A stretch of DNA of 64,000 bases, taken from UHGV virus genome UHGV-1353844; one strand, written 5' to 3'. A model generated the notes under the pieces. The model searched no databases, was not told where the DNA came from, and saw nothing but the letters and a program-made list of their open reading frames with translations. Position 1 is the stretch's first letter; each line of letters starts with the position of its first letter. Both the position numbers and the translations under genes were made by a program. The stretch comes from a virus. This document shows positions 9,981-50,919 of this stretch, piece by piece.

Positions 9981-9992
9981 GGTACCACCTCT

Positions 9993-20033: not shown

Positions 20034-20046
20034 GGAGAATTTTTTG

Positions 20047-23000: not shown

Positions 23001-24228
23001 TTCCCGTTCAGTTTCAGACGTTACTGACATTCCGTTGGTAATGGAAGAGTCTGGGGAAACAGCGGTGAATGCAACGTTTAAGGACGTGTTGTTCAACGGT
23101 GAAGAAACCAACCCCGCGATTCTCGATTTGATTGGCTGGGGTGCCACCCGAGATAAAATCTCTGCAAACCATGCACCTCGTGGGATGATTCGTTACCGTT
23201 ATAACGTAAGTACGCGTGTGTTACGTTTAGCGTTGTCGTTCTCGCAGTTTGGGACGACGACAGTTAAACAACGTCAATTGGAGATTCAATTCCCGTTTGA
23301 CTTGGTGGATTATTTCACCGGTGACGGAATAGGGTTGTCGTTTAAAGAACTGAGCGCGAAATGCCGAGTAACAATTAGCCACGCACTGATTGATCCGGTT
23401 ACGAACAACATCGACATTGATAAGTATCATTACTTACGTTCGTTGTTTGAGTCGTATTTGGATTCATCCGTTGGGTATTTGGCTGATAACAAAGACGCTG
23501 ATTATAGTCAGTCTGTGATTGACCCTGCGACTTATGAGATTAGTCAAAAATACCGTGCCACGGAGAGCATTGCCTTGCCAACTGGTCAGGGAAACGTTGC
23601 GGTTTCTCACGATGGGCAGTTACCTGCGCAGTTCTTTGATCGTAAGCTGTCTCGCGGTGCGCTGATGGCGAAGAAAAACGAACTGCATACTTCCTGGAAC
23701 AACGAGTGGAGTACGACTAAGGCTGCTGCAAGTCGTTATCGTCACAAACTCATTCTCCGTTTTGCACAAGGTGCCGATAAACAACAGTACCGAATTGCAA
23801 AAGTGTCAGGAACGATAAAAAGTAACTGGCCAGGTAAGGTGATTATCGGCGACGCAGGGAAAGACCCATTCTTAGCGTCTACTGATAGCGCAGAGTTTGC
23901 TCTGTCAACCAGTGCTGACGTAGGTAAAGCGATTAGTATCACGGCCACCGACTTACGTGTAGGTCAGGACATCTATATTGTCTTAGACCCGCCGGGTGAT
24001 AATCCCGAAGGTTACGAGCTTAACTTTACCTGTTCGTTAGACGTGACTGATGAGCAAAGCACTCGTCAGGATCAGCTTAATGCGCAGAGCTTCGAACTGC
24101 GTAGCGGTGAAAAGCAGTTCTTAATGGAGAAACGCAATCCGTACCATATCACGAGTAAAGCGTGGAAATGGATACTTTCTGTACTGAAACGTGAACTTAA
24201 CGGGAAGCAGTTAGGGGATCGTACTTAG
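20047..24228 (+). CDS. tail fibre protein (1393 aa) with shared N-terminal anchor module
   Basis: ATG at 20047 with AAGGAG SD (track starts at TTG 20044); N-terminal HRPFFEDLVV...GVDYEL module; canonical tail-fibre motifs ATTAEKGVVKLKT and ITKADLGLGQADNTADLDKPLSTAL. Confidence 0.65.
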   Translation: MKAYPYDPRGTKTENHFLEERIIGSENNNDRVVILDHRPFFEDLVVRQPGSTTPLSRGVDYELQYQLTELDDSVAANVYCGVHLINPSIKGIVTFEGQMLGGTFYDPFVDMLDELVKYLNNPVSADWLLLDGRPSLYPATPAATSWADLLNKKYLASAIHDIELKTDDANQLIKDKLAEVKALVAALGKEIEAFNYPAHIAATNPHETTSAQINAHPVNLKTPDTFMAYGLKLKALTEELKAFRLPQSVIDTYISHWISSEVRGVFNCTVSGNRAQFRSKNGESEIIFANDGFTLKSNGSVVLAVGHLEGTGAGRYINWRAGKNTLRIESTGDALGMNKLTLNGNPLLTTTALMEYQQDPDAGGSGGSDPDDSKVYIEGRNGISFTGKGSRADPIVGTIDPTKATTAEKGVVKLKTGKGTETVGVAATPASLTPYSTDLSGYVTKTTMINGKPMNDGSRTITKADLGLGQADNTADLDKPLSTALNASVSGLADVGHHHDWSELGIYKASQSIYGIGRYATNQNGLVENRAVVPNILKELSARLDVVAAAIANAKEGTVTDFAAVKGADWRFNSQGTSISVQDLKYFYLLDGTKGDSTVTGAIDLQTTPMFNWFSPNNQLELTWPTGKVSNGTGINWTGIEEPPLMGFQSVPVGKTATQMGDQSVVTVLAKTRVRAYQSKLWVYAAGGGPVTVYINGNLAASGESPLVAVYETSADVENYTIAVKAECSDTAKSAAVQFEVYDGDYPVYFSGPETRVELLQEFVTTHVGIRHYLYVNMLTGSLYSRAEPIQSIAVDPERGYIGYVDIVAGENYANKTVGFETTFDFGKSAEVSEHIDTRKAHGLSSVDWALTDNPRLPLLNRAIAEPRACIFRKALTAGTGDVFHLVSRGLYTYAHNQNVKSSLQYVVMPEGATPYCWFTPFNPKENNAPTFEGSFAFDVDDVGGTQALTAAPDLVLCTSTQGASVKRRYVRIDLTDKACKLGIGSRSVSDVTDIPLVMEESGETAVNATFKDVLFNGEETNPAILDLIGWGATRDKISANHAPRGMIRYRYNVSTRVLRLALSFSQFGTTTVKQRQLEIQFPFDLVDYFTGDGIGLSFKELSAKCRVTISHALIDPVTNNIDIDKYHYLRSLFESYLDSSVGYLADNKDADYSQSVIDPATYEISQKYRATESIALPTGQGNVAVSHDGQLPAQFFDRKLSRGALMAKKNELHTSWNNEWSTTKAAASRYRHKLILRFAQGADKQQYRIAKVSGTIKSNWPGKVIIGDAGKDPFLASTDSAEFALSTSADVGKAISITATDLRVGQDIYIVLDPPGDNPEGYELNFTCSLDVTDEQSTRQDQLNAQSFELRSGEKQFLMEKRNPYHITSKAWKWILSVLKRELNGKQLGDRT

Positions 24229-24265
24229 GACAGGCTGCCTGCGGGCAGTTGTGTGTCCGTAGGTA

Positions 24266-24300
24266 ACCCCTCCCTGTAATGGGGAGGGGTATCCATTTTA
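24266..24300 (+). terminator. terminator-like hairpin between fibre genes
   Basis: ACCCCTCCC-TGTAAT-GGGGAGGGGT followed by ATCCATTTTATTT. Confidence 0.45.
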
Positions 24301-24322
24301 TTTAAAAGTAGGAGTCTTTACG

Positions 24323-27300
24323 ATGCCGAGAGAAGACGCGGCGCAGTTTAACGGTACGCTAAGCACAGCGACGTACCCTAACCGATTTAACGTGGTCATT
24401 CCGCCTGAAGGACCTTTTTATCGTATCGGATTAAAACTCACAGTAGCCGACGATACCGCGCCTAACGGACGTCGTACTCTGATTGAGGGGTTGGACTACT
24501 ATTTAGGCTATTACTTTAAAGAACTCGCAGAAGCTGAACAAGATCAGATTTACGGCGGGTTTATGTTGCTTACTGCAACAGAAATCGAATATGAGATTTT
24601 AGGGGTAGCACGTCAATACCGTGTACCGCAATCTGAAATCGGGAAGTTCTTAGTTCGTACTGACCTGAAAGACCCACGTAACGTGGACTGGTCTGAACTA
24701 ATGGCGTATGCGCCGGTTATTCAGCCTATCGACCCGCCTGCTAACTTAGAAGAAGCGATTCTGAGGGATGAGGTTGTTAAGGCGTTAGAAGACATTCGCA
24801 AGAAAATCATCAAACGTTCTACGGAATTAGATGCTGCGTTCAGTGAAGTCACTAACTTGATTTACGAGAACGGTAAAAAGGTTTTCGACGAAGAGTTATA
24901 CCAGCATCACCGTAACCCTAACGCGCATCATTATACCACTGATGACATTGCTGCTCTCCCGGTATTAGGTCGTGCTGTTGACGCTACAAAAGCGTTTGGG
25001 TTGACGATTGACGAGTTGGCTACGCTGATGGGTTCAGCGGGTATTGAGCAATCGGACGTTGACCAGTTAATGGGTGAAGCCCTCGGCACCGTTTACGGTC
25101 GATGGGGTACCACGAACGGTAATGAATTAACGTTTAAAACGTCAGGTGGCCACATCATCAGTATTCGTGGTGATAAGTGGTTAATTACCTCGCCACAACC
25201 GTTGGTGATTAAAGCAGACCAGGACAACAACGAATCGGGTTTAGCGGTTGAATTCAGTGCGGGTCTGAATACGCTTTGGGTTCACTCGGGGTCGGAACAG
25301 GACGTATTAGCGCCAGTTTATAACTCCGTGTACCTGGTTACACCAGAAATGGTGAACATGTATCTGACGTCAGTAACGTTGCTTGAAGCAAACGCGTATT
25401 TCAAAGCGTCAGACACTGTAAAACCGTACGGTACCGCAAAACAGACTAACCCGGTTACGTTAAACGCGAATATTCCCACGGCGTCCGAATCAGTTTATGG
25501 GTTGTTCTCGATTACGAATATCTCTACGTCTGCGGCGTTAGGTACTGCTATCTCCCAGAAAGCTGTAACAGAATTAAAAGACCGCTTGGACTTGTACGTT
25601 GACGATGACTATACCGTTAACGGTAAAGGGTTTGTTAAAACAGGCGACAATATGGTGTTAACCTTAACGAAAACCGATTTCGGTATCGATAAGATGGATA
25701 ACACCATACCGAGTGATAAGCCTGTGACAAAAGCGTTAACGAACGTGTTGAAAAACAAGAGTTTGAAAACGCACACCCACACCACTGCTGACTTGGATAA
25801 CGTCCCGATTGGTAGTGCAACGGTTGACGGTATCTTACAGCTCTGGGATGCAATTGACACCACTAACGATAAAGCTGTCACGTCGCGTCAAGGCTGGTTG
25901 TTCGCAAAAGAGATTAAGAAGGTCTCTGATAAACTGAATACCATCTTACCGGCGTGGACGGTAGGTGGAGCGAAATTCGGTAACAAGAACTTCTTACCTA
26001 TCCCAGCGTTAGGTAACTACGCAGGCTATACCAAAAACCAGTCCTACCAGAAAGGGGTTGTTGGGTATCAGCAGGGTAAGGTTTATTCGCTCCGTAACGG
26101 TTCTAACGGCGTGCCGGGTACGGAAGCTATTTATTACGGCTATGCTGACATTGACACGTCAAACGCGTTTGTAAATCCGCAGCAGACCTCAGTGAAATAT
26201 CACCCTGCCGGGATGAGTAAATATCCTGGGGTGACCCTAATAGCGATATTGATCGGTGGCCAGGAAGCGATTATTTGCCTGGGTTCTGACAATAACCGTT
26301 ATTTGGTGCTGTTTAATGGCTCGATGGACCACACTAAGCACACGGTGGTATGTCGCGTTACGATGCCCGTGTACCGTAACGGCAACCCCAGTGGTACTGT
26401 GGAACAAACCTGGAACCCGTGGCCGGAAGCTGACGATGTCGTGTTGGTTGAGGACTACGTTTATCTTCTCCGTTCAACGGTAAATAACTCCGCTTACGCC
26501 GTAGCAGCTTGGCGTCTACGTAAGGCCGATTTGTCTACTAACACTACGTTAGAATTTGAACGTGTAACTCTAACCGGCGAGATGGGACAATTCGGAGATA
26601 ACCTCTGCTTGCGTATTGGTCAGAAAACCGAAGAGTCGCAAACGGGTCAATTCTTTACATATCTCACACCGGAGGGTCGTGCTAAATGGACGATCGGGCG
26701 TAACTTTGTTCACGGTCCAGAATGTAACCACGCGTGTGCTGTGCGCGATAGCGTGATTCGTGTGAACCATATGCCTACCGTGTGGTTTGCAGCGGCCGAC
26801 GGTACGACGATTAATTTCCTTCAATGGGCAACAAGTTTTACAATCGATACGTTGACGGGCAAGGTTACGTTAGAAGGCCGCGAACGCTTCCCCATCAAGG
26901 CTGATGCTACTACTACACTCTCGTTCGCAGATGGTTCAACTGTAGGAACCAATCGTAAGTGGGGTGGTGGCCAGGCAAACAACCGTTGTTTCGCGACGTA
27001 TGCTAAACCCAACGGTACAGGAATGATGCTTTCCTGTTGGCAAATTGCCGATGCGGACCAAATGCCTAATGTTTCTATTAAGAGTACACAAGGCAGAGAG
27101 CTTTTCGATTATCTGCGTTACGATAACCCAAACAACACCTCGGGCGAAGGAACGTTTACCTGGGATAAAGGCCGTGGCTCCATTTACACCATCGGTTTGT
27201 CTTATCCAGTAGGGATTGGTGGTTCGAATAAGGTCTGGTTATCGAACCCTCGTAACCGTTACACGATCGAAGTGGAAGTTGATCCGAACAAACCTTACGA

Positions 27301-29509
27301 TGTTTCTGGGTATAGTGGGTACGGTCCGAACAACAACCGTCGTGAAGTCGATCCAACGCTTTACGAGCAGCTTAGCTGTATGGCTGCGTGCATGATCCCT
27401 GAGGAGCGTCATGGACAGTTGAACGGCTGGTATTTGACCAAAGCAGAAACGTTCCCGTATCGTAACATCTACGGTAACTTCGCATTGTCTTCCGAACGCT
27501 TAACGCTAGAAGAAGCCGATCGGCAGAAAATGATTCGGATGATCGTTGACGGTGCGCCATCTGGTCAAGCAAATGGTTACGCGAACGAACGTATTAGTGC
27601 TGCACATCAAACCGGTAATGCATTGTTTGCTCTTTGGATGTTGGGTATCAACACCGTGTGCGAATTTGACTTGTTGCAAGTTTCGTGCATGAAAACCTCA
27701 AGTAACGGACGTCGAATTCTTGACATCTATTACTTCATGGTGAGCCCATCTAAAGAGAACGGCTACTTACGTTTCAACTCAGCCACCTTTAAGTTGGTGG
27801 ACTGGTTCTTAGACCTCGATTATGGTTTAAGTTATCAGTCACTAAATGGGGGAGCGGGAGGTAAAACGAGGCGCGTGGGGCAGCCTATTTTTGCATCTGC
27901 GGATGGAACTAACTTCGGTATCTGGTTACCTTATACGTTAACTACCCGAAATATCGGGGACTTAAACGCCCTGGGCTACGCTGCTAAATATACCTTCGAC
28001 CCTGGTTCAGGTTGGACACGCGTTGCAGGTAAATCACAGTTACGGCAGATGGCCCCTGAACATAGACCAGAATCTGGGTGCTATATGGGTGCCGGTGATT
28101 GGGACAAGATGGCGTTGATTTACTCTAAAGCTGACCGTGTTTTCTGTTCAGGTAACGCGTATACAGCCGCAGAGTTCGTTAACGACACGACGTTCTCAAC
28201 CGGAGGTCAGGCGGTTATTATTGCCGGTGTGGAAACAGCGGAAGGTTGGATTCTGTATTTGACAGAAGAAGTCAAATTAGATTTCGGTAGCAGCAGTTAC
28301 ACACTCCCAACGTGGTCTGTGGATTTAAGCAGTGAGTTCCCATCCAATCACGCTAACCAGACGTTCTACGTGCACGCTGAGGTGTCGGGTTCTACCGCGC
28401 AATACCGCATCGGTTTGGAGCAGTTAGCCGATACCTCAACAAGACTGTTCGTTGGGACAGTAACCACCGATTCCAGCCGTATTACTGGTATCAGTATCGA
28501 CAAAGTAAAACGTTTGGGTCGTGTGAAAGAACTGGAAGACCACGCAGCAATTATCGACCAACACGATGTAGCAGCAGCGTTTGACAGAAAGACGGGTCCT
28601 CTATTAACACTGGTTAACAAGCCCGTTAAAGCACCTACGGCGTCTGCGTCGAAAGGTGAAGGGTATGTTGACGGTCAGAAATGGGGTTCACTGTCCGGCA
28701 TTACGACGCGTCCTAAGTTACCAATTCAGGAAACGTATTCGGGTTATAAGAGCGTGGCCAGGGTAGCGTATGAGAACTGCGCTGACCAATTCTGGCAGAA
28801 AGCGGTAGCTGCTAACATTGCGACAGCCACTGCTTCTGAGAACATGCAGGCAGCGTCTGCGAACATGAAATGGATTGGTGCGTATACGAAACCGACTACC
28901 GGAACGAATGCTTACTTAGCATTGAGTTTGCGTGTTCAGGTGCCAGGTAATCCAGGAACGGCGAATCGTGCTCTGAAACTACGACTTGCTGCACCAACCG
29001 GTATTGTTGAAGCTCGGTATGCATTAAACCAGGCCGGTGGTACGATGACTGAACAAACGGTAACGTTAACCGCCAACCAGTACCTGGAAAAAGAGCACAG
29101 TGGGTTTAAACCTGCCGAGGAGGTTCGTGTTCATGTCACGTTCGTTATTCCGAAGAACGAGTATGAAAGTTATCGTACGAAGTTTGGGGCGGTACAGTTG
29201 ATTGACGTTGAATCGAACACCATCGTCAAGCAGGCTGATATCGACACACCGTTCTTTGTCTTTACGGACACTGAACTGGCTGCGCAATCTGGTTTGGTGT
29301 ATAAAGCGGTCAAGGGTCAGTTTGACAATCTCCCGAGTGAACCTACGCTCATTGTCCGAGATGGTCAGACCGGAACTAACCCACCGGTGAAATCGTCTTA
29401 CGCTAACGGTACGCTAACCGTTTACGTAGCGACCGCGTACGATGCCGTGAATCCGGCGGAAACTCGCGATATCGACAAACTCCAGTTCAATCTTATGTTT
29501 ACATCTTAA
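24323..29509 (+). CDS. tail fibre protein (1728 aa) with shared N-terminal anchor module
   Basis: AGGAG SD; N-terminal EGPFYRIGL...GLDYYL module; fibre motifs VYGLFSITNISTSAALGTAIS and DKMDNTIPSDKPVTKAL. Confidence 0.65.
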   Translation: MPREDAAQFNGTLSTATYPNRFNVVIPPEGPFYRIGLKLTVADDTAPNGRRTLIEGLDYYLGYYFKELAEAEQDQIYGGFMLLTATEIEYEILGVARQYRVPQSEIGKFLVRTDLKDPRNVDWSELMAYAPVIQPIDPPANLEEAILRDEVVKALEDIRKKIIKRSTELDAAFSEVTNLIYENGKKVFDEELYQHHRNPNAHHYTTDDIAALPVLGRAVDATKAFGLTIDELATLMGSAGIEQSDVDQLMGEALGTVYGRWGTTNGNELTFKTSGGHIISIRGDKWLITSPQPLVIKADQDNNESGLAVEFSAGLNTLWVHSGSEQDVLAPVYNSVYLVTPEMVNMYLTSVTLLEANAYFKASDTVKPYGTAKQTNPVTLNANIPTASESVYGLFSITNISTSAALGTAISQKAVTELKDRLDLYVDDDYTVNGKGFVKTGDNMVLTLTKTDFGIDKMDNTIPSDKPVTKALTNVLKNKSLKTHTHTTADLDNVPIGSATVDGILQLWDAIDTTNDKAVTSRQGWLFAKEIKKVSDKLNTILPAWTVGGAKFGNKNFLPIPALGNYAGYTKNQSYQKGVVGYQQGKVYSLRNGSNGVPGTEAIYYGYADIDTSNAFVNPQQTSVKYHPAGMSKYPGVTLIAILIGGQEAIICLGSDNNRYLVLFNGSMDHTKHTVVCRVTMPVYRNGNPSGTVEQTWNPWPEADDVVLVEDYVYLLRSTVNNSAYAVAAWRLRKADLSTNTTLEFERVTLTGEMGQFGDNLCLRIGQKTEESQTGQFFTYLTPEGRAKWTIGRNFVHGPECNHACAVRDSVIRVNHMPTVWFAAADGTTINFLQWATSFTIDTLTGKVTLEGRERFPIKADATTTLSFADGSTVGTNRKWGGGQANNRCFATYAKPNGTGMMLSCWQIADADQMPNVSIKSTQGRELFDYLRYDNPNNTSGEGTFTWDKGRGSIYTIGLSYPVGIGGSNKVWLSNPRNRYTIEVEVDPNKPYDVSGYSGYGPNNNRREVDPTLYEQLSCMAACMIPEERHGQLNGWYLTKAETFPYRNIYGNFALSSERLTLEEADRQKMIRMIVDGAPSGQANGYANERISAAHQTGNALFALWMLGINTVCEFDLLQVSCMKTSSNGRRILDIYYFMVSPSKENGYLRFNSATFKLVDWFLDLDYGLSYQSLNGGAGGKTRRVGQPIFASADGTNFGIWLPYTLTTRNIGDLNALGYAAKYTFDPGSGWTRVAGKSQLRQMAPEHRPESGCYMGAGDWDKMALIYSKADRVFCSGNAYTAAEFVNDTTFSTGGQAVIIAGVETAEGWILYLTEEVKLDFGSSSYTLPTWSVDLSSEFPSNHANQTFYVHAEVSGSTAQYRIGLEQLADTSTRLFVGTVTTDSSRITGISIDKVKRLGRVKELEDHAAIIDQHDVAAAFDRKTGPLLTLVNKPVKAPTASASKGEGYVDGQKWGSLSGITTRPKLPIQETYSGYKSVARVAYENCADQFWQKAVAANIATATASENMQAASANMKWIGAYTKPTTGTNAYLALSLRVQVPGNPGTANRALKLRLAAPTGIVEARYALNQAGGTMTEQTVTLTANQYLEKEHSGFKPAEEVRVHVTFVIPKNEYESYRTKFGAVQLIDVESNTIVKQADIDTPFFVFTDTELAAQSGLVYKAVKGQFDNLPSEPTLIVRDGQTGTNPPVKSSYANGTLTVYVATAYDAVNPAETRDIDKLQFNLMFTS

Positions 29510-29549
29510 TGACTCGAGACAAGGACGTCTCGAATAAAGGAGAGTGGCC

Positions 29550-30749
29550 ATGGCCTCCATTGTTTATCAATATCCTTTAGATTTAACGGGCTCGCTAACG
29601 TCTAACGCTGTAGAGCGTCAGATTACGTTAGGTACAGGTAAAGTAAACCGTGCTTTTGCTTTTCCTGACGGCCCGTTCTTTGCGGACACGTTCCGTTTAC
29701 GTGTTGCTAACCGACCGGATGCAACCTACGAACGTGGTACCGATTATGAGTTGATTTTTGCACACCCGACTTATGAAAAGCTGACTAAAAACCGCGAGAT
29801 TGTTATGGCGGTGGTGGTCACTAACACAGCGATTCCAACAGATATTACGGTATCTGCGCAGGTCGTTGGTGGTCCACAGTCTGCGAACATTGTGGCTATC
29901 GAACAGGCGATTGCTGAATTAAACCTCGATAACCGTACGATTGCGTTTAAAGACCTGCGTAACGTACCGGATACATTCCCATCTGCACCGACGTATAAAG
30001 ACGTGGGTGACATCTACGGTTTTGAATATATCATTACCGTATTGGCGGGTATTAAAGATGCGATCAGTTCCGGTGACGCGGTACAGTTAGAGAACATTAA
30101 AGCGATTTTAGAAAGCCTGAAAAATGACTTCTTAGACGCTTTAAATGCACACATCAACGCAACCGGTAACGTTCACCATCTTGATATTCATCAGGTTAAC
30201 GGGTTAACAGAAACTGAAATCCGTGCGCTTATTCGTGACGTCCAGTCTGCCATCGACGCAACGATTACGGAAATCAATGCACTGAAGAAAGCGGACGAAG
30301 CTTTAGGTAAGCGTATTGACGCTGTTGTCAACTCTCTGGAAGCGTGGAACGACCAACTTAACGTGGTTGCTCAAAACTACCAGAAAATGGCCTTAGCGTT
30401 AGCGAACCTGAACTCGTTAGTGTTACAACTGCAAAAGAGCATCAACGATTTAAACACAAAACTGAATCAGGTTATTCAGCGTGTTGCCGCGTTAGAGCAA
30501 CAGGGTCAAGAAACCGATCAGAAAATCGATCAGGTACAACAGAACCTGGATGCGCTTAAACAGCAAGTTAACAATAACACGAACGCAATCAGTCAAGCGA
30601 ACCAGAACCTACAAAACCACATCGCGGCAGATAACCCGCACACCGGTTATCTCCACAAGAGATACGGTGGTGTGGTTCAGGCCCCAGTACACGTTAACGC
30701 TAACCTGACGTCTCGTGATGACGTACAGGCGGAAGCGGGTACGAAATAA
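29550..30749 (+). CDS. fibre-associated protein (399 aa) with shared N-terminal module and C-terminal coiled coil
   Basis: ATG at 29550 with AAAGGAG SD (track starts at GTG 29544); N-terminal DGPFFADTFRL...GTDYEL; C-terminal half Q/N/L-rich heptads. Confidence 0.55.
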   Translation: MASIVYQYPLDLTGSLTSNAVERQITLGTGKVNRAFAFPDGPFFADTFRLRVANRPDATYERGTDYELIFAHPTYEKLTKNREIVMAVVVTNTAIPTDITVSAQVVGGPQSANIVAIEQAIAELNLDNRTIAFKDLRNVPDTFPSAPTYKDVGDIYGFEYIITVLAGIKDAISSGDAVQLENIKAILESLKNDFLDALNAHINATGNVHHLDIHQVNGLTETEIRALIRDVQSAIDATITEINALKKADEALGKRIDAVVNSLEAWNDQLNVVAQNYQKMALALANLNSLVLQLQKSINDLNTKLNQVIQRVAALEQQGQETDQKIDQVQQNLDALKQQVNNNTNAISQANQNLQNHIAADNPHTGYLHKRYGGVVQAPVHVNANLTSRDDVQAEAGTK

Positions 30750-30758
30750 TTTAATTAC

Positions 30759-30803
30759 AGGAGGAACTATGCTTATGGCTGGTTCCTCCTCTATTTTAAT
30801 TTT
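30759..30803 (+). terminator. terminator-like hairpin separating fibre module from Cys-repeat/radical-SAM operon
   Basis: AGGAGGAAC…GTTCCTCCT stem (13-nt loop) followed by CTATTTTAATTTT. Confidence 0.4.
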
Positions 30804-30814
30804 AAGGAAGCGTA

Positions 30815-31207
30815 ATGGCGATTAGTGTTAAACAAATGCGCGATCGGTTAACCACAGTAGAAAATACAGTCGCTACCGGCCCTCGTGTCAATGCGCAGGT
30901 CGCATCGAAAGCGCATAACGCGGCAGATTCGTTTTCCGGTTGGACGCCTTCGCGTTTAGACTGCGGAGGAGCGTGTTCGTGGACATGTTCTAACGGATGT
31001 ACTCACGGTTGCTCGAGCTGTTCAGGAAACTGTTCAGCGTCGTGCGTGGGTAGCTGCTCTTCGTCCTGTGGGGGCAACTGTTCGGGATGCTCTGGCTGCT
31101 CGGGGGCTTGTTCTAGCAGTTGTACAAGTACCTGTACTGGAAGTTGTACTGGGCGTTGTTCGCATAACTGTTCGGGTGCTTGCTCCGGCGGTTGCTCTGG
31201 TCGATAG
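30815..31207 (+). CDS. Cys-repeat protein 1 (130 aa): N-terminal leader-like region + (Cys-x3)n core; candidate radical-SAM substrate
   Basis: AAGGAAG SD; C-terminal ~80 aa has 20 Cys at almost strict 4-residue periodicity separated by S/G/T/A/N (…CSWTCSNGCTHGCSSCSGNCSASC…). Confidence 0.55.
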   Translation: MAISVKQMRDRLTTVENTVATGPRVNAQVASKAHNAADSFSGWTPSRLDCGGACSWTCSNGCTHGCSSCSGNCSASCVGSCSSSCGGNCSGCSGCSGACSSSCTSTCTGSCTGRCSHNCSGACSGGCSGR

Positions 31208-31216
31208 GGGGAAGAA

Positions 31217-31612
31217 ATGGCGGTTGGATTAGCTGAATTAGTAAGACGTCTTAATAACGTCGATAGTATCGCGCTGAAAAACACCACAGGTGTACAGAAC
31301 TACATCCGCAATAAGGCCACGAATAACGCGGACCTGTTCGGTGGTCGGAATCGTGCGCATTATGACTGTGCGGGCACGTGTTCCTTTACCTGCTCGAGTT
31401 GCTCTGGTGGCTGTACAGGGAACGCGTCTGGTGGTTGCGGTTCTTCATGCTCTGCAAACTGTACGTCAGGGTGTTCAAGTAGCTGTTCAGGGTGTTCGGG
31501 GAGTTGTTCGGGTGGGTGCGCTAATGCGTGCTCGGGCACTTGTACGGGCGGCTGTACAGCATCGTGCTCCAGTAGCTGTACCGGTGGCTGCTCGTCGTGC
31601 ACAGGACGATAG
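31217..31612 (+). CDS. Cys-repeat protein 2 (131 aa), paralog of 30815..31207
   Basis: Divergent N-terminal ~50 aa then (Cys-x3)n core (…CSFTCSSCSGGC…CSGSCSGGCANACSGTC…). Confidence 0.55.
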   Translation: MAVGLAELVRRLNNVDSIALKNTTGVQNYIRNKATNNADLFGGRNRAHYDCAGTCSFTCSSCSGGCTGNASGGCGSSCSANCTSGCSSSCSGCSGSCSGGCANACSGTCTGGCTASCSSSCTGGCSSCTGR

Positions 31613-31622
31613 GAGGTGAGAA

Positions 31623-31832
31623 GTGATTTCCCTCAAAAATATTCGAGACAGAATCGGTCAGGTTGAAGGCTACATTAAAACCACAGATGCGAATAACTAT
31701 ATTGCTAATCAGGGTACGGTGTCCTCAACGAATAACTTGGCAGGATTACCGTTAACTCACTATAACTGTAATGGGAGTTGTAGCTGGGCGTGCAGTGGTA
31801 GCTGTAGTAAAGGTGCAGGGGGAGGCAGGTAA
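31623..31832 (+). CDS. Cys-repeat protein 3 (69 aa), short paralog
   Basis: GTG start with AGGAGG SD; N-terminal region similar to the other two, short core CNGSCSWACSGSCS. Confidence 0.45.
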   Translation: MISLKNIRDRIGQVEGYIKTTDANNYIANQGTVSSTNNLAGLPLTHYNCNGSCSWACSGSCSKGAGGGR

Positions 31833-31953: not shown

Positions 31954-32841
31954 ATGAAGAACGATCTACATCTTGCATATACGACAACGTTCAATCATCC
32001 ACTTCACATCTCTTCCCCTGATTCGGTACGTCACCATCTTGCTGATGATGTACGCTTAATTGCCATGATTCCTGGGGAATGGCCGAAAGTGCGTGGTCGT
32101 CATATCGCTAATCGTGACAACTTTACGGTTGAGAATACGTTCAAAATTCGTGATATGGTTGGCGAAAGCATCGTTGTCTTTACCGGTGACAACTCACAAC
32201 GCGGTAAACTTATCGACGGTAAATATTTCTTTAGCGACGGTGTGTTAAATAATACAGTTGACTTAGAACTTATGTTCACACCGTTTGAAGAACTCGATGC
32301 TAAACCAATGGCCCGTCGTTGGTGGAGTCCAGACTACCTGGGTGCGTTCCCTAACTATTACGCGTTGGTTGAAAAAGATACCAAAGAGTATTTTGATACG
32401 GAACCGTATATCGATATTGAAGGCTATCAAGAACTCGGAATTACGCATCTGGCCGACTTAATGGCGTACAGCTATAAGTTCGAATGGATTCGTGAACGTT
32501 CGGTTTGGAAAGCCATCACTGACGAACACGTGATTACGAAACGCATTCGTAAACCGTGGATGCAGCATATGGTTCAGGTACGTTTTGGTCAGAGCCCAGC
32601 TACCGAAGCGGACATTTCCAAACTCGTCAGCTTCTTGCTGTCGAAAGTTAAACTGACTGACGAAGAAGCCGAAGCAGTTAAGCCGATGCTTGACCGTGTT
32701 GTGACCTTAGAAGACCTCAAACGGATGAATAGCCGCTACAACGAACTTAACCGTTTACTGGAAGCGTATAATTCGCCACTGATTTTAAAACCCGGTGTTA
32801 ACTTCGACGAAGATCCTTTATTCGCCATCGATTATATTTAA
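31954..32841 (+). CDS. hypothetical protein in radical-SAM operon
   Basis: 295 aa; GGAG SD; between Cys-repeat genes and radical SAM genes. Confidence 0.5.
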   Translation: MKNDLHLAYTTTFNHPLHISSPDSVRHHLADDVRLIAMIPGEWPKVRGRHIANRDNFTVENTFKIRDMVGESIVVFTGDNSQRGKLIDGKYFFSDGVLNNTVDLELMFTPFEELDAKPMARRWWSPDYLGAFPNYYALVEKDTKEYFDTEPYIDIEGYQELGITHLADLMAYSYKFEWIRERSVWKAITDEHVITKRIRKPWMQHMVQVRFGQSPATEADISKLVSFLLSKVKLTDEEAEAVKPMLDRVVTLEDLKRMNSRYNELNRLLEAYNSPLILKPGVNFDEDPLFAIDYI

Positions 32842-32861: not shown

Positions 32862-33779
32862 ATGATAGACAATGTGGAATCCAGGATCTCGACGAAGTTG
32901 TACGATAAACCCACTATATTGTCCGTAGTTACGACGTCTAAGTGTAACCTAGACTGTAGTTTCTGCGGTGGAGCCTACTACATGAATCGTGAAGATTCGT
33001 CTCGTGCTTTTCAACGCGAACGTATCCTGGAATTACTACAAGAGAATCCAGCTATTAAGGAAATACATTGGACGGGTGGTGAACCGCTACTCGTCCAACG
33101 TAAGATTGAGGATTTCGTTAACGAACTGAAAGTGTCTCATCCGCACCTTGAGCATCACTTGTATACCAACGGCTTAAAACTGCGTAAATCGCATCTTACG
33201 CTGCTAAAAGACTTTGAGCATGTGTTTGTATCAATTGATGGCTACAAACGTTCTGAGCGCCCTTTTATGCGCTTTATTGAAGAGGATAGCCACGAAGCAC
33301 TGGAAGCGTTATACGAACTCGATAACTTCCAAACCTGGGCTGTGATTACGCGTGACCAGTTAGCCGATAAGCGCTGGTATGAAGATATTGTGGATTTACA
33401 TCGTGCGATGTACCACTATCGTCCCCGTGCGTTTTCTCTGATGTTTGATGCCCAAATGCCAAAACCGTTGTCTCCCGATCACATCATGAACTTCGTTTAT
33501 GGTTATTTAAAGATTCAGGAGAATATGGAACGGCTGAACGTCCAAACCGGAGAATCGTGCGGCGTGTCTGTCAGCAAGATTTTCGAAAACGAGTGTAATG
33601 TCTGTAGCGAAGAGTTGTATTTGAACGCAGATGGAACAGAACATCAGCTTCAGAATGCACCGGCTATCTTAAACGGTGGGTGCAATCAGCTTGCTTGCTC
33701 TATCGGGGTAGGTGCTTACGAGTACATTAAACGCGTGATTTATGCAGAGCGTAAAAGGATAAGCAAAGATGAGCAATAA
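32862..33779 (+). CDS. radical SAM enzyme
   Basis: CxxxCxxC cluster (SKCNLDCSFCGG) at residues ~27-34; GGE motif (WTGGEPLL); additional C-terminal Cys pairs (CNVCSEE…CNQLAC). Confidence 0.7.
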   Translation: MIDNVESRISTKLYDKPTILSVVTTSKCNLDCSFCGGAYYMNREDSSRAFQRERILELLQENPAIKEIHWTGGEPLLVQRKIEDFVNELKVSHPHLEHHLYTNGLKLRKSHLTLLKDFEHVFVSIDGYKRSERPFMRFIEEDSHEALEALYELDNFQTWAVITRDQLADKRWYEDIVDLHRAMYHYRPRAFSLMFDAQMPKPLSPDHIMNFVYGYLKIQENMERLNVQTGESCGVSVSKIFENECNVCSEELYLNADGTEHQLQNAPAILNGGCNQLACSIGVGAYEYIKRVIYAERKRISKDEQ

Positions 33780-35103
33780 TGAAGCACCACGTTCACAACG
33801 TACTTACCAGGTGGTAACGAACCTGTCTTGTAACTTAGACTGTGAGTATTGTTACGAACGTAAGTATCCGCGTAATAACAAAGCGGCGGATATCGTGGAT
33901 TTCTTACACGCCTGTTTTGAGCGTGATAAAGATATTCCGAACATCGACGTCATTATTGATATCATCGGCGGCGAACCTTTTATGCAACCGAAACTGCTGT
34001 TAGCGGCGTTTGAAACCGCAGAACAGTTGTGTAAGGAGCATAATCGACCGTATATGTTCAGTATCTCCACGAACGGGACGTTGTTAGACCGTCCGTTAAA
34101 CCGTGAGATCGTCGAGCGTTGGAAAGACAAACTCTCCATCGGTGTGTCTATCGACGGGCTGCCAGAAGTCCATGACCGTTATCGTATCTTTACCACGACG
34201 CGTCAGGGTTCTTACGAAGCCGCTGTTCGTGGCTATAACTACTTAAAAGAAGTGGGTATTGCTGAACTGGGTATCAAGGCAACCTTTACAACCGAAACCC
34301 TCCCGCATTACGCGGCGAGTATGAAGTCGTTAATCGATATTGCGGGTGGTGGTACGATTTCGGGTAACGTGACGTACGAAGATATCCTTCCACGGAGCAT
34401 GGCAACGGATATTGCGTTGCAGATGATCGAGGTGATGGATTATTGGATTGAGAAAGGGCTGCACACCAATCCACGTAACGTGTTGTCCCACATCATTCCT
34501 GAAGGTCTGGATTTCCGTCAGATTTGGGACCCAGATTGGCGTGATAAACTGCTGTACGACGACACGCACCGTTATAACCCTGAACGTTTACGTCCGTTCT
34601 GTGGGACGTTGACGTTTATGACTTGTTTAGGTTTTGACCGTAAGGTGTATGGTTGTAACCGATTCATGTCAACGGTAACGTCACGCTCTGCGGTGTTTGA
34701 GTTAGTCGGTCGTGAGTTTGTTAGCTTAGACGGCGGGAAACTGCTGGAAGAGATTCAGACGCAATACACCAACTATCCTGAAACGTGCTTAGGTTGTCCG
34801 ATGAAACACGGTTGTGGGAGCTGTGCAGCTGCTTCCTACGAAAACGGTGAAGGGACACTGGAAGACCGTAAGGCGTACCACGCTGAACGACGTCAATGTG
34901 GTTGGACGACCGCAAAACTGATGGCGGCAGAATACTGGCGTCAACGTACAGGCACCGTCCACGCATCGTCACTGCACGATTCGTCTGTTTGTTACTGTCC
35001 GAAATGTACGCGTGAGCGTGAGCAAGCTAAACGTGCGTTAAATGCACAACCTACTGAGGCAAATAATGAAATCAATTCTGATCCACAATTTTACGAAGCG
35101 TAA
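33769..35103 (+). CDS. radical SAM/SPASM-domain enzyme (peptide-maturase-like)
   Basis: CNLDCEYC near N-terminus, GGEP motif, C-terminal Cys-rich SPASM-like cluster (CLGCPMKHGCGSC…); 11-nt overlap with the preceding radical SAM gene. Confidence 0.7.
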   Translation: MSNNEAPRSQRTYQVVTNLSCNLDCEYCYERKYPRNNKAADIVDFLHACFERDKDIPNIDVIIDIIGGEPFMQPKLLLAAFETAEQLCKEHNRPYMFSISTNGTLLDRPLNREIVERWKDKLSIGVSIDGLPEVHDRYRIFTTTRQGSYEAAVRGYNYLKEVGIAELGIKATFTTETLPHYAASMKSLIDIAGGGTISGNVTYEDILPRSMATDIALQMIEVMDYWIEKGLHTNPRNVLSHIIPEGLDFRQIWDPDWRDKLLYDDTHRYNPERLRPFCGTLTFMTCLGFDRKVYGCNRFMSTVTSRSAVFELVGREFVSLDGGKLLEEIQTQYTNYPETCLGCPMKHGCGSCAAASYENGEGTLEDRKAYHAERRQCGWTTAKLMAAEYWRQRTGTVHASSLHDSSVCYCPKCTREREQAKRALNAQPTEANNEINSDPQFYEA

Positions 35104-36286: not shown

Positions 36287-36329
36287 TACCTACCTCCGTA
36301 AAGGAGGTAGGTAAACTTATTATTTTTTG
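36287..36329. terminator. bidirectional rho-independent terminator
   Basis: TACCTACCTCC-GTAAA-GGAGGTAGGTA flanked by A-run upstream and T-run downstream; between convergent genes. Confidence 0.65.
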
Positions 36330-49572: not shown

Positions 49573-50076
49573 TTAACTAATCTTCAAATCTCTTAATGTG
49601 CCGGTTGATTTCATCACGTTTTGGAAAGCAGTGCTAATGTTAGAGGTCCAGTAATAATGTTGACCATTAATAACCTGCTGATAGGCTACCGTACAAGTGT
49701 TGCCGCCTAGATTTACGGTGATGTTAGAAGCTCTCCCACCTTGTAAATAGACCGCTAAACTTGGTTTTGCATCAGCAGCCAATGTGATCAATAGTAGTTG
49801 GATACCAATAAGTGTGCCTACGCCGCAGCTACCAGGATTCTGAATAGTCCCTTTATTTTTCTGCGCTAACGGCCAGTTTGGTCCCACCGCACCCCAAAAT
49901 TTAGCCATTGAATCGCTATATGCAGCAGTTGCGATTTTACAGCCAAGAGATCGGCCCACCATTTGACTCATCATAAAAGGTCTACCCAATCCTAATTTAC
50001 TACCAGCAGCACTCATCCATTGTTCGCCCGTTTCGTTCTTGGCCGAAGAACCGACCCATCCAGATGCTACCCCCAT
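49573..50076 (-). CDS. gp38-like adhesin paralog (shared N-terminal fibre-binding module, distinct C-terminus)
   Basis: N-terminus MGVASGWVGSSAKNETGEQWMSAAG… matches N-terminus of adjacent glycine-rich adhesin; no glycine-rich region. Confidence 0.45.
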   Translation of the reverse strand: MGVASGWVGSSAKNETGEQWMSAAGSKLGLGRPFMMSQMVGRSLGCKIATAAYSDSMAKFWGAVGPNWPLAQKNKGTIQNPGSCGVGTLIGIQLLLITLAADAKPSLAVYLQGGRASNITVNLGGNTCTVAYQQVINGQHYYWTSNISTAFQNVMKSTGTLRDLKIS

Positions 50077-50136
50077 TATACCCTATCCTTTTGAAAGGTG
50101 TGAGGAGGGGAGTGAGTATCCCCATACTTTTTCAAA

Positions 50137-50919
50137 TTAAACACGTGAACCATATATTGCACCTACTGCGTCCCATCTTGGCGCATTACCTCTAACGGCT
50201 GCACCAGCGGCTCCGCCGTTATATTCTGTACCGTTACCATGAGTATTACATCTTCCTCCAGCAGCACCGACATTACCACCCGAACCGCCTGTATATGCAC
50301 TAAGAGACCCCTCACCAACAGATCCTCTACCAGGAGCGGAAATAGTACCAGCAGCTGCACCGGAACTCATATGTGAGGAAGACCCACCAGCACCGAATGG
50401 GCGACCACCGCCACCACCAAATATTAGTCTACCCCTGTTACCGCCGCCACCGCCGCCACCGCCTCCGGCAATAGCGCCACGGTTGGTTATACGCAGTCTG
50501 TTTCCTATTCCGTTCTGTATTGCGGTTCCACCTGCACCGCCTGGTGAGTTAGAACCGCCGTTGCCTCCTCTGCCGTATACTGTAACCCCAGGATTGATGA
50601 TGAGTGTAATATACGAATTTGGAAGATTGCTAGGGAATTCTAAACAAGGAACCCCGCTACTATAAGACACTAAATCCCCTGTAATGGTCACAACGACAGC
50701 ATTAGAGCCTATAGAACGTAAATAGTTAATAAGCGTATCTTTATTGTAATTGTGATTAGCCCCGATCGAATACTGAACCTCTTTTGATTTTCCCGCCAAT
50801 TGCGACATCCAGCCTGGAACCGGCACACCAAGTGTGCGCATCGCGCCAGACATCCAATCGTTACCAGTTTCAGCTTTTGCTGAAGAACCAATCCAACCAC
50901 CTACGCCGACAACTGCCAT
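50137..50919 (-). CDS. gp38-like tail-fibre adhesin (T2-type, glycine-rich motifs)
   Basis: N-terminus MAVVGVGGWIGSSAKAETGNDWMS… and poly-Gly tracts (GGGGGGGGGN, GGGGGRPFGAGGSS) typical of T2/T6-type gp38; immediately downstream of the long tail fibre gene (TAATG overlap). Confidence 0.55.
   Translation of the reverse strand: MAVVGVGGWIGSSAKAETGNDWMSGAMRTLGVPVPGWMSQLAGKSKEVQYSIGANHNYNKDTLINYLRSIGSNAVVVTITGDLVSYSSGVPCLEFPSNLPNSYITLIINPGVTVYGRGGNGGSNSPGGAGGTAIQNGIGNRLRITNRGAIAGGGGGGGGGNRGRLIFGGGGGRPFGAGGSSSHMSSGAAAGTISAPGRGSVGEGSLSAYTGGSGGNVGAAGGRCNTHGNGTEYNGGAAGAAVRGNAPRWDAVGAIYGSRV

Follow-up and report, generated by a model that had tools for sequence, protein, structure and literature searches.

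Base composition of the Cys-repeat genes in the tail-fibre module of an SPN3US-like jumbo phage follows from the amino acids they encode

The Cys-repeat genes and their radical SAM cassette

The locus lies in a 64,000-nucleotide stretch of a viral genome (UHGV-1353844), referred to below as the window, and its features are on the plus strand unless stated otherwise. The ORF list contains three adjacent genes for Cys-rich proteins: cysA (30815..31207, 130 aa), its paralogue cysB (31217..31612, 131 aa) and the short paralogue cysC (31623..31832, 69 aa), which starts with GTG. All three match phrog_6085 (E 1.6e-36, 1.6e-42 and 1.6e-25, respectively), and each is preceded by a ribosome-binding site, AAGGAAG located 5 nt upstream in case of cysA, GGGGGAAG in case of cysB and a strong one, AGGAGGTGA, in case of cysC. 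In the cysA product an N-terminal region of approx. 48 aa is followed by an 82-aa core of Cys-Xaa3 repeats with 21 Cys; the core of cysB holds 20 Cys and cysC has only 4. Cys makes up approx. 24% of the core and is regularly spaced: in cysA a distance of 4 residues occurs 17 times and one of 3 residues three times, and 35 of the 42 Cys-Cys intervals of the Cys-repeat cores measure 4 residues. Lys and Arg are absent from the cores and Asp and Glu nearly so (2 Asp in 186 residues). Since the cysC orthologues have kept a length of 66-69 aa in all four related genera (L001-L004, 52-79% identical), cysC is not a decayed copy.

The AF2 model of cysB, built on an 18-sequence alignment, had a pLDDT of 47, with helices predicted at residues 5-36. 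Its core was not obtained as a confident structure (pLDDT <50), thus no structural argument is drawn for cysB. Repeat expansion at the DNA level was rejected as the origin of the cores, since the repeats are only short and imperfect (at most 21 nt, 76-83% identity); the protein repeats of the cores are old and their codons have since diversified. The N-termini of the Cys proteins were also considered as copies of the C-terminus of the upstream tail protein, but the BLASTP matches were not significant (E 0.7-4). The two regions have an 'H-x-A-A-D ... G-G' stretch in common, with a 15-nt match at the DNA level. A derivation of the N-termini from that C-terminus could be kept as a weak lead.

The upstream gene encodes a 401-aa coiled-coil tail protein (29544..30749; phrog_2163, E 7e-103), the orthologue of SPN3US gp167 with 77% identity and a possible partner of the Cys proteins in the fibre; three unrelated viral contigs likewise have a phrog_2163 member upstream of their Cys-repeat genes. 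RNA folding revealed a hairpin with a T-rich run between this gene and cysA (30759..30792, -20 kcal/mol, z -2.9 against shuffles), which may be an attenuating terminator or a processing site. It was missed by the consensus promoter and terminator scan because its loop is longer than 8 nt, and the matches of that scan were no commoner than in shuffled sequence.

Downstream of cysC the cassette continues with the gene of a 295-aa accessory protein (31954..32841), which always occurs with the two radical SAM genes, followed by those of a small, 305-aa radical SAM enzyme with the cluster motif CNLDCSFC (32862..33779; PF04055, E 8e-15) and of a 444-aa radical SAM/SPASM enzyme (33769..35103), the last two overlapping by 11 nt. 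The small enzyme matched no NCBIfam family at cutoff; its weak homologues stand beside the SPASM enzyme in one homologous locus (L021) and are fused to it in another (L005), and the window SPASM enzyme is 33-35% identical to the maturases of these two loci. In a 27-sequence alignment of the SPASM enzyme C21, C25, C28, C296, C340, C343, C349, C352 and C377 are invariant and C278 is kept in at least 90% of the sequences. All the cassette proteins fall in PHROGs 6085, 8030 and 1802 with significant full-length matches (E 1e-138 for phrog_8030, 1e-61 and 8e-114 for phrog_1802); the first two families are labelled 'unknown function' and the third only 'radical SAM domain-containing protein'. Family scans found no peptidase, exporter or immunity gene in the operon.

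The cassette is directly downstream of gp168-170-like and gp167-like genes, that is, within the tail-fibre module, and a tail-like or DUF4376 gene comes after it. In Salmonella phage SPN3US the corresponding locus (gp163-gp166) has the same genes in the same order. The encoded proteins, counted from the 401-aa tail protein through the last cassette gene, share 67-83% of their amino acids with those of the window, and 36-50% identity was obtained for the large fibre genes that lie farther upstream. At the nucleotide level the identity is approx. 72% over 46% of the query, and the window phage is a species distinct from SPN3US.

Source of the GC rise

The earlier note had taken a local shift in GC content and codon usage over the Cys-repeat genes as a suggestion of recent acquisition. 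The Cys-repeat DNA is indeed richer in GC than its flanks: the value for 30815-31612 is 0.544, compared with a mean of 0.455 (sd 0.032) for all 798-bp segments of the window, a deviation of about +9 points or roughly 2.8 sd. Only 0.09% of the 798-bp positions reach 0.544 and all of these start at 30805-30878, with the global maximum (0.549) at 30837; in the 500-bp profile of the window 31001-31500 is the top bin (0.536). G alone is in excess (0.321 versus 0.225), while C is not raised (0.223 versus 0.229) and A is 0.192 versus 0.267. The rise is restricted to the repeat cores of cysA and cysB (0.565 and 0.589); the N-terminal approx. 50 codons of the two genes have a GC of 0.51 and 0.47, and the neighbouring cassette genes show no anomaly (0.44-0.48, z 0.2-2.0).

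Within the cores the excess sits wholly at codon position 2. GC1/GC2/GC3 were 0.33/0.90/0.46 in the cysA core and 0.32/0.94/0.51 in the cysB core, compared with 0.52/0.39/0.46 in the reference genes, and GC3 of the Cys-repeat genes, 0.46-0.50, is close to the expected 0.44-0.47. The codons of Cys, Ser, Gly and Thr (TGY, TCN/AGY, GGN, ACN) each bring a G or C to position 2, and since these residues make up approx. 80% of the cores, GC2 is driven to 0.9. The GC expected from the amino-acid sequence was calculated under the window's own synonymous codon usage, with the 57 other genes of the window as reference. It amounted to 0.542 for cysA (observed 0.546, z 0.3) and to 0.523 for cysB (observed 0.545, z 1.5), and the z values of observed against expected GC, 0.3 to 1.7, were inside the calibration sd of 1.68. 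Synonymous choice was not shifted either, as judged by chi-square tests (p = 0.71 for Cys, 0.40 for Ser, 0.075 for Gly, 0.38 for Thr and 0.33 for Ala) and by the synonymous-usage likelihood (z -1.2, -1.4 and -1.3, compared with a mean of -0.23 and an sd of 1.71 in the other 57 genes). Thus the codon-usage shift described in the note exists as far as the encoded amino acids are concerned, but not in the choice among synonymous codons, and the note's second suggestion, a composition constraint from TGY/GGN/TCN codons, proved both correct and sufficient, the observed GC being equal to the expected one.

The same pattern was found in 69 distinct Cys-repeat cores from contigs of 29-63% GC. GC1 (0.33) and GC2 (0.83) are flat across these cores, GC3 follows the flanking GC (slope 1.7, r 0.89), and the mean GC bump is +8.4 points. 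The locus resembles the genomic islands that mark horizontal transfer in its local GC deviation of about 9 points and differs from them in that the deviation is limited to codon position 2, while nothing atypical of the genome is seen in GC3, synonymous usage, phyletic distribution or divergence. The GC rise is a by-product of the encoded amino acids and no sign of foreign origin.

The composition of the Cys-repeat genes also has consequences in the other reading frames. The two long antisense ORFs reported over them are present as placed, both P/E/Q-rich and on the minus strand (31003..31287, 94 aa, and 31360..31602, 80 aa), and a 109-aa, A/V/R-rich ORF covers cysB in the +2 frame (31290..31619, plus strand). 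Off-frame ORFs of such length recur in random back-translations of the same proteins (for the stop-free runs of the antisense ORFs, P of a simulated run at least as long as observed 0.2-1.0), in agreement with the view that such ORFs are a hallmark of biased codons: the Cys/Ser/Gly/Thr composition keeps the other frames free of stops and thereby gives rise to the spurious antisense and +2-frame ORFs. The annotated equivalent of the +2-frame ORF is gp166 of SPN3US. That the off-frame ORFs are the true genes and the Cys frame the artefact could be argued from their length (80-109 aa) and from the +2-frame ORFs called over the Cys genes in the public annotations of SPN3US, Derbicus and Wellington; it is refuted by the codon-position pattern of the substitutions. 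The differences between phages concentrate at third positions when read in the Cys frame, with 26/14/84 differences at positions 1/2/3 of cysA relative to SPAsTU and 27/17/74 relative to SPN3US; in case of cysB the numbers are 33/27/76 and 32/28/76. Together with the ribosome-binding site in front of each Cys-frame gene, the invariance of every Cys position in distant homologues and the fact that such ORFs are expected by chance from the Cys-repeat composition, this leaves the off-frame genes with practically no probability. In the SPN3US annotation cysA and cysC are absent and gp166 is called in the wrong frame, and in the public genomes of SPN3US, SPAsTU, Derbicus and Wellington the Cys genes are unannotated or in the wrong frame.

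Age and conservation of the cassette

The suggestion of a recent acquisition supposes a GC-richer donor whose base composition and codon usage are still visible. The position of 30815-31612 as the GC maximum of the window speaks for it, and transfer of the module in deep time is clear, since it is seen in jumbo myoviruses and in T7-like, P2-like and siphovirus-type phages. The findings described above argue against a recent event: the amino-acid sequence predicts the whole GC excess, GC3 and synonymous usage are typical of the genome, the adjoining cassette genes have no GC anomaly, and the same bump accompanies the 69 homologous cores regardless of the GC of the phage that carries them.

The distribution of the cassette points in the same direction. 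Related phages lacking it had been proposed as a comparison, but it was present at the same position and with identical gene order in all four SPN3US-like jumbo phages examined (SPN3US, SPAsTU, Wellington and Derbicus). In INPHARED the cysA leader matched 60 records, all of the same clade. For the radical SAM/SPASM protein there were 63 matching records, 62 of which covered 80% or more of it, and for the upstream tail protein there were 64 full-length ones, again of the same clade. The more distant jumbo phages pVa-21, Goslar, 201phi2-1 and RP12 are without the cassette. The divergence of the Cys genes parallels that of their flanks, with 73-79% identity in the Seoulvirus phages (flanks 70-83%) and 50-57% in Wellington and Derbicus (flanks 31-63%), and their synonymous sites are heavily diverged while the protein is kept. 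Family scans of the window proteins found no integrase or transposase, and no bounding repeats were found around the cassette, only short chance repeats. Judged from these sequence comparisons, the Cys-repeat genes are ancestral to the SPN3US-like jumbo-phage clade and under purifying selection. Since the codon composition of Cys, Gly and Ser accounts for the whole sliding-window GC deviation and the cassette is retained throughout the phage lineage, recent acquisition was rejected and is in our judgement highly improbable.

Proposed function of the Cys proteins

Homologous modules were found in the tail regions of T7-like podophages, a P2/Mu-like phage, a Campylobacter P2-like prophage and a Deferribacter siphovirus-type prophage. 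The last three carry the Cys repeats at the C-terminal end of a tail-fibre-like protein of 302-401 aa (L021, L023 and L024). The L021 protein, of 401 aa, matches tail-fibre PHROGs and that of L023 matches PF12571; in two further loci (L097 and L099) unannotated proteins of 931 and 1120 aa end in the Cys domain. In L005 a neighbouring paralogue has collagen repeats in place of the Cys repeats; it shares the N-terminal domain of the Cys protein, and a tail-fibre PHROG is matched by the two alike. Among distant homologues, P0015 and P0008 match the tail-fibre family phrog_5073 with their N-domains (E 6e-7 and 2e-4). The functionally labelled PHROG neighbours upstream of Cys-repeat ORFs are tail or virion structural genes with one exception, a phosphodiesterase. 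With these fibre-like homologues the approx. 50-aa N-termini of the window Cys proteins share only the junction motif before the first Cys, and the free-standing Cys proteins of the window had no significant similarity to a known fibre domain.

Among the families of known or predicted maturation systems, the closest likeness is to the curated target-maturase pair TIGR04114/TIGR04115. The targets, TIGR04114 ('Cys-rich repeat-containing protein', CXXX-repeat radical SAM target), likewise carry a Cys at every fourth residue among small residues, and no window protein other than cysA and cysB touches this model; the two score 19.5 and 17.6 bits, below the cutoff of 20. The best NCBIfam match of the adjacent SPASM enzyme is TIGR04115 ('radical SAM peptide maturase, CXXX-repeat target family'), with a score far under the cutoff (124.8 versus 350 bits). 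Bona fide TIGR04115 members, with 434-474 bits, are present in viral contigs of IMG/VR, and most of the labelled genes that precede their Cys-repeat genes are for tail fibres or other tail parts. Of four tier-2 viral maturases that were scored, three fell in this range and one reached 295.9 bits; a tier-2 viral target homologue reached 39.8 bits with TIGR04114. The bona fide loci differ from the window clade in being without the second, smaller radical SAM enzyme and the 295-aa accessory protein, and in their N-terminal regions ('ISDEDFxxLK...RR' versus 'NADxLxG...HYDC' in the window). No experimental characterisation of TIGR04114 or TIGR04115 was found in the literature searched, and no paper on the present Cys-repeat genes was found either. 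In a cyanophage paper a radical SAM gene is only listed, under 'antibiotic synthesis'.

The next NCBIfam match of the SPASM enzyme is PapB (NF047865, 110.8 bits, cutoff 340), and geopeptide and SCIFF maturases are also among its matches. The PapB-type ranthipeptide maturases and the SCIFF/sactipeptide enzymes share with it the CX3CX2C motif and the full set of SPASM cysteines, and the PapB substrate motif also recurs with a Cys-Xaa3 period. PapB links Cys to an Asp or Glu three residues away, whereas the window cores are nearly devoid of such acceptors. The window substrates further differ from those of PapB and SCIFF in being proteins of 69-131 aa or, in the homologues, whole fibre proteins and not short peptides, and the operon differs from ranthipeptide and sactipeptide clusters in having no leader peptidase or exporter.

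On this basis cysA, cysB and cysC would be the substrates of the accessory protein and the two radical SAM enzymes. The enzymes would most likely introduce intramolecular cross-links, for which thioethers derived from Cys, as known from ranthipeptides and sactipeptides, are a plausible form. The Cys ladder would thereby be made rigid and resistant to proteases and redox conditions, as a domain that constitutes or decorates the distal part of the tail fibre in the virion. The accessory protein may act like a tail-fibre assembly chaperone or a RiPP recognition factor, either as a chaperone or as a factor that presents the substrate; its fold showed no detectable similarity to known chaperones. 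Tail-fibre assembly chaperones are encoded just downstream of the fibre gene, and in two homologous loci (L023 and L028) the accessory gene is directly 3' of the fibre gene. Like the repeat-built fibres with collagen-like Gly-X-Y repeats, the window cassette belongs to a tail-fibre module; we know of no fibre with a Cys-Xaa3 ladder or with dependence on radical SAM enzymes. One related locus, L025, runs counter to this reading, as a Cys-repeat ORF is absent there although the three maturation genes, for the accessory protein and the two radical SAM enzymes, are present.

A different fate of the same modification would be a diffusible RiPP, in which cysA, cysB and cysC are leader-plus-core precursors, and the product leaves the cell at lysis as a peptide for antimicrobial action, signalling or anti-defence and is no part of the virion. 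The architecture of the proteins agrees with this, since an N-terminal region of approx. 50 aa, predicted to be helical as in many leaders, precedes a repetitive Cys core beside SPASM-type peptide maturases, RiPP maturases (TIGR04115, PapB, geopeptide and SCIFF) head the family matches, several paralogous precursors are typical for RiPP clusters, and the SPASM enzyme of SPN3US was scored as non-virion. However, the operon has no leader peptidase, exporter or immunity gene, and in some homologues the same Cys domain ends proteins of 302-1120 aa, which cannot be leader peptides. Moreover, the cassette is inside the tail module in all phage types examined, and the corresponding slot of the related jumbo phage pVa-21 holds a gene annotated as 'putative tail fiber assembly protein'. 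We regard a diffusible product as rather unlikely.

The Cys ladders might also serve metal binding, as metallothionein-like sponges or as scaffolds for metals or Fe-S clusters, for example along a trimer axis, the radical SAM enzymes having some other substrate. The high content and regular spacing of Cys in the cores and the failure of AF2 to fold the apo monomer are compatible with this, and in some phage fibres, such as T4 gp37, metal ions are coordinated by repeated residues. But a same-strand Cys-repeat ORF was present within approx. 3 kb in 69 of the 80 IMG/VR loci with a related maturase, and this co-occurrence, together with the curation of TIGR04114 and TIGR04115 as a target-maturase pair, argues that the Cys repeats are the substrate of the enzymes. 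Metal binding as the function of the ladders is thus considered improbable.

Mass spectrometry of the SPN3US virion scored gp167 as 'Tail' (PMC10052503, Table S2), and the virion proteomics assigned gp167-170 to the tail and gp163 to the non-virion proteins (PMC10052503). gp164-166 are absent from the virion list (PMC10052503). The database that was searched either lacked the true Cys ORFs or had them in the wrong frame. Since these ORFs were outside the database and the cores contain no Lys or Arg, the tryptic sites, the SPN3US proteomics says little either way.

Taking base composition and gene context together, we hold the overall reading with high confidence: the GC bump is compositional, and the Cys proteins are the probable substrates of the radical SAM cassette, likely representing a fibre-associated domain that is cross-linked by radical SAM chemistry. 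A wider model can be put forward more tentatively, as one that may well not hold in full: in all three tailed-phage morphotypes RiPP-type radical SAM chemistry would act on a virion protein, and dedicated radical SAM/SPASM enzymes encoded by the phage would, with an accessory chaperone, cross-link a Cys-Xaa3 ladder, either fused to the C-terminus of the tail fibre or, in the SPN3US-like phages, split into three proteins, into a hyper-stable fibre tip or decoration, affecting adsorption or environmental robustness.

The GC finding in itself is ordinary. It demonstrates that a skewed amino-acid repertoire alone can give a GC bump of approx. 9 points and long antisense ORFs, and since the bump is purely driven by amino acids, calls of horizontal transfer should use GC3 or synonymous usage and not raw GC. 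The composition bias also has a cost in annotation, as proteomic searches built on those public annotations could not have found the Cys proteins. Beyond this, the cassette ties a computationally defined radical SAM/CXXX-repeat family, apparently uncharacterised, to phage tail-fibre modules. If the reading of a cross-linked fibre is true, it would represent an enzymatically cross-linked structural element of the phage virion, it would give the so far uncharacterised CXXX-repeat/TIGR04115 family a physiological role, and it would raise a testable question on how phages stabilise or diversify their receptor-binding apparatus.

GC content and reading frames of the Cys-repeat genes

The GC-rich patch described in the earlier note is real. 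The interval 30815-31612, which covers cysA (30815..31207) and cysB (31217..31612) on the plus strand, has a GC content of 0.544 compared with an average of 0.455 (sd 0.032) over all windows of 798 bp; values this high occurred at just 0.09% of the 798-bp window positions, every one of which overlapped the interval, and the global maximum was obtained at start position 30837. The excess is in G, not in C, A is depleted, and the rise is restricted to the Cys-Xaa3 repeat cores, the first approx. 50 codons of each gene being close to the genome average. The 186 core residues include 51 Ser, 45 Cys, 41 Gly, 15 Thr and 12 Ala, and the Cys-to-Cys spacing is four residues in 35 of 42 intervals. A second GC peak of the window (50001-50500; GC 0.534, GC skew markedly negative at -0.266) lies near the 3' end of a minus-strand gene encoding 1488 amino acids (50919-55385) and over a 260-aa gene (50137-50919).

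The expected GC was calculated by coding the three Cys protein sequences with the window's own synonymous usage, using a reference codon table of 57 other long ORFs of the window (18,197 codons). The observed and expected values were 0.546 and 0.542 for cysA (z 0.3), 0.545 and 0.523 for cysB (z 1.5), and 0.454 and 0.473 for the short paralogue cysC (31623..31832; z -0.9), on a scale where z had an sd of 1.68 across the other genes. No GC anomaly was found by the same test in the neighbouring cassette genes. The GC1, GC2 and GC3 values of the cores were 0.32-0.33, 0.90-0.94 and 0.46-0.51, as compared with 0.52, 0.39 and 0.46 in the reference genes. The synonymous choice for Cys, Ser, Gly, Thr and Ala showed no difference from the rest of the window (p 0.08-0.71), and the synonymous-likelihood scores of the three genes were around the 30th percentile of the other genes. 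Since the observed GC approximates the expected one, and both GC3 and synonymous choice are typical, it is the encoded amino acids that are shifted; the codon-usage shift proposed previously stands in that sense only, the synonymous usage itself being unshifted.

The two antisense ORFs reported before (31003-31287 and 31360-31602) were indeed found. When cysA and cysB were back-translated 2000 times under the window codon usage and the stop-free runs were scored in the other five frames, the simulated runs reached or exceeded the observed lengths with a probability of 0.2-1.0; in ordinary gene segments of 130 codons the +2-frame stop-free runs were much shorter. Thus the antisense and +2-frame ORFs are by-products of composition. 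The Cys frame was settled as the coding one by the differences at the three codon positions, which were 26/14/84 (SPAsTU) and 27/17/74 (SPN3US) for cysA, and 33/27/76 and 32/28/76, respectively, for cysB. Each cys gene is preceded by its own ribosome-binding site.

The same stop-free off-frame effect is behind the mis-annotation of cys genes in public records. SPN3US gp166 (RefSeq gp100; L002:9477-9812) is a +2-frame A/V/R-rich ORF on top of the real cysB, and the SPN3US cysA and cysC (L002:9001-9393, 9824-10021) lack annotation, as do all three cys genes of SPAsTU (L001:7964-8985). Judged by coordinates, Derbicus gp162 and gp161 (L004:9017-9415, 9550-9822) and Wellington gp118 (L003:8700-9029) are one base off the Cys frame.

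Genomic setting and age of the cassette

The window belongs to an SPN3US-like jumbo phage. DNA matches to Salmonella phages SPAsTU and STsAS and Erwinia phage pEa_SNUABM_29 are weak (72% identity across 46% of a 4.5-kb query), and the IMG/VR contig IMGVR_UViG_3300045988_095954 is 100% identical to it. The radical SAM/SPASM protein (33769-35103) has 100% identical counterparts in Salmonella enterica assemblies, listed as 'radical SAM protein [Salmonella enterica serovar Chester]' in a cluster of 111 member sequences on contigs of up to 226 kb. Bacterial assembly records thus seem to contain this jumbo phage genome, which suggests Salmonella as the host.

The flagged interval lies at the end of the tail-fibre block. 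It is preceded upstream by three paralogous genes of very large size (15711-29509) and by the gene of a 401-aa coiled-coil protein (29544-30749) matching SPN3US gp167; the adjoining large gene (24323-29509) matches gp168 and the preceding one (20044-24228), more weakly, gp169. SPN3US gp167-170 were identified as tail proteins by virion mass spectrometry (PMC10052503). Between the 401-aa protein gene and cysA there is a strong hairpin with a T-run after it (30759-30792, -20 kcal/mol, z -2.9), which may set the expression of the Cys genes relative to the fibre genes. Another hairpin, with a perfect 11-bp stem (36287-36313), scans as a terminator on both strands and marks the boundary where the plus-strand tail-fibre/cassette block meets converging minus-strand genes.

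One gene order is common to SPN3US, SPAsTU, Wellington and Derbicus: a large fibre gene, an approx. 400-aa tail protein, two Cys-repeat genes of about 130 aa, a short paralogue of about 68 aa, a protein of about 295-310 aa, a small radical SAM enzyme, a radical SAM/SPASM enzyme and two small genes. In INPHARED the N-terminal leader of cysA matched 60 records, the SPASM enzyme 63 (in 62 of them across 80% or more of its length) and the upstream tail protein 64 at full length, essentially one and the same clade; in more distant jumbo phages the tail protein homologues are partial and the cassette is absent. In Vibrio phage pVa-21 the cassette slot is occupied by a gene annotated as 'putative tail fiber assembly protein' (L106:8411-8839), directly after a longer, 465-aa homologue of the 401-aa protein, an arrangement that fits a cassette placed in a fibre-tip-plus-chaperone slot.

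In amino-acid identity the Cys genes keep pace with their neighbours in every comparison, and neither bounding repeats nor mobility genes turned up. The intragenic DNA-level repeats are short and imperfect, which indicates that the protein repeats are old. A 15-nt near-repeat (30618-30632/30914-30928) codes for H-x-A-A-D in both the C-terminal part of the 401-aa protein and the N-terminal region of cysA, and residues 5-30 of cysB are collinear with residues 335-360 of the former; the likeness of the cysA and cysB N-termini to this protein was not significant (E 0.7-4).

The composition check was extended to 69 distinct cores of this Cys-repeat type, taken from phage contigs with flanks of 29% to 63% GC. 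GC1 (0.33) and GC2 (0.83) were flat against flank GC, GC3 tracked it (slope 1.7, r 0.89), and the mean GC bump was +8.4 points, bigger in AT-rich genomes. Thus the bump is a signature of the protein family wherever it is present. The suggestion of recent acquisition is therefore rejected, given the typical GC3 and synonymous usage, the gene order shared with relatives and the divergence in step with the neighbours, and its alternative, a composition constraint from Cys/Gly/Ser codons, is accepted; it accounts for both the agreement of observed and expected GC and the bump across the 69 cores. The GC observation is ordinary and fully explained.

Cassette proteins and their counterparts in other phages

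All three Cys proteins belong to phrog_6085, a family without known function. Against the NCBIfam model TIGR04114 (CXXX-repeat target; cutoff 20 bits) cysA and cysB fell just short, with 19.5 and 17.6 bits. Downstream are the 295-aa accessory protein (31954..32841; phrog_8030), a 305-aa radical SAM enzyme (32862..33779) and, overlapping the latter by 11 nt, the 444-aa radical SAM/SPASM enzyme, which carries a CX3CX2C motif and the SPASM cysteines. Among NCBIfam families, the CXXX-repeat-target maturase TIGR04115 scored highest for this enzyme (124.8 bits, below the cutoff of 350), followed by PapB (110.8 bits). The accessory protein gave a confident structure model, for which no fold relatives were detectable.

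With cysB, the SPASM enzyme and the accessory protein as queries, the same components were found in unrelated phages, and all Cys positions are invariant across the distant homologues. In T7-like podophages (L005-L007, L011) the series begins with a protein that bears the N-terminal domain of the T7 tail fibre, followed by a small collagen-repeat protein and an approx. 210-aa Cys-repeat protein, both matching a tail-fibre PHROG; next come an accessory homologue and a fused double radical SAM enzyme in L005-L007, and directly a single 270-aa radical SAM gene in L011. A P2/Mu-like phage (L021) has a collagen-like fibre protein of 401 aa ending with '...NGQAPDYYRCANGCSWTC...' and then Cys repeats; the gene of this protein is followed by radical SAM, accessory, radical SAM/SPASM and tail sheath genes. 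The same three cassette genes follow a PF12571 tail fibre with a short Cys-repeat tail in a Campylobacter P2-like prophage, and a 302-aa fibre-like protein with 29 Cys in a Deferribacter siphovirus-type prophage. Another locus (L025:5291-10281) combines a T7-type tail fibre with an accessory homologue, a radical SAM/SPASM gene and a small radical SAM gene; at the position of the last, the source gene calls had an antisense ORF. No Cys-repeat ORF was found at this locus; its substrate is either elsewhere or different.

Of 80 IMG/VR loci with a related SPASM enzyme, 69 had a same-strand Cys-repeat ORF within approx. 3 kb, the largest Cys count being 92 (in 480 aa). The accessory protein was present in all six closest loci and a separate small radical SAM gene in four of them, and the SPASM ORF of L030 is long enough for a fusion. 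At the distant loci no accessory protein was found, and a second radical SAM gene gave weak matches in only a few of them. Three of the four distant maturases tested are bona fide TIGR04115 (434-474 bits), the fourth (295.9) being under the cutoff. The labelled upstream neighbours (PHROG) were tail fibre, tail collar fibre, central tail fibre J, tail protein and virion structural protein, with a phosphodiesterase as the one exception; the virion structural label comes from phrog_2163, to which the window's 401-aa protein also belongs. Very large Cys-Xaa3-repeat proteins lie beside related maturases at L032:5807-7249, L036:3587-4672, L099:4627-7989 and L100:9115-11790 (maturases of L032 and L036, 434 and 296 bits against TIGR04115); one has 92 Cys in 480 aa, another 88 Cys in 891 aa, and a 1120-aa protein carries C-terminal CQxxCQxxCE repeats.

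Proposed role of the Cys repeats

In the simplest reading, the SPASM enzyme and its partner would use the Cys ladder as their substrate and introduce cross-links that make it a rigid domain, located at the distal end of a tail fibre or attached there. The 295-aa protein would take the place usual for a fibre chaperone and would present the substrate. The main rival, according to which the product is a classical released RiPP, seems unlikely, since a peptidase and an exporter are missing and there are homologues with the Cys domain at the end of a fibre-like protein. The published SPN3US proteomics is uninformative on virion presence, as cysA and cysC were unannotated, gp166 is in the wrong frame and the cores have no tryptic sites; no paper on this cassette was found in the searchable library. 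The cassette can be described as a divergent version, with four components, of the CXXX-repeat/radical SAM system that was defined computationally; it is embedded in tail-fibre modules.
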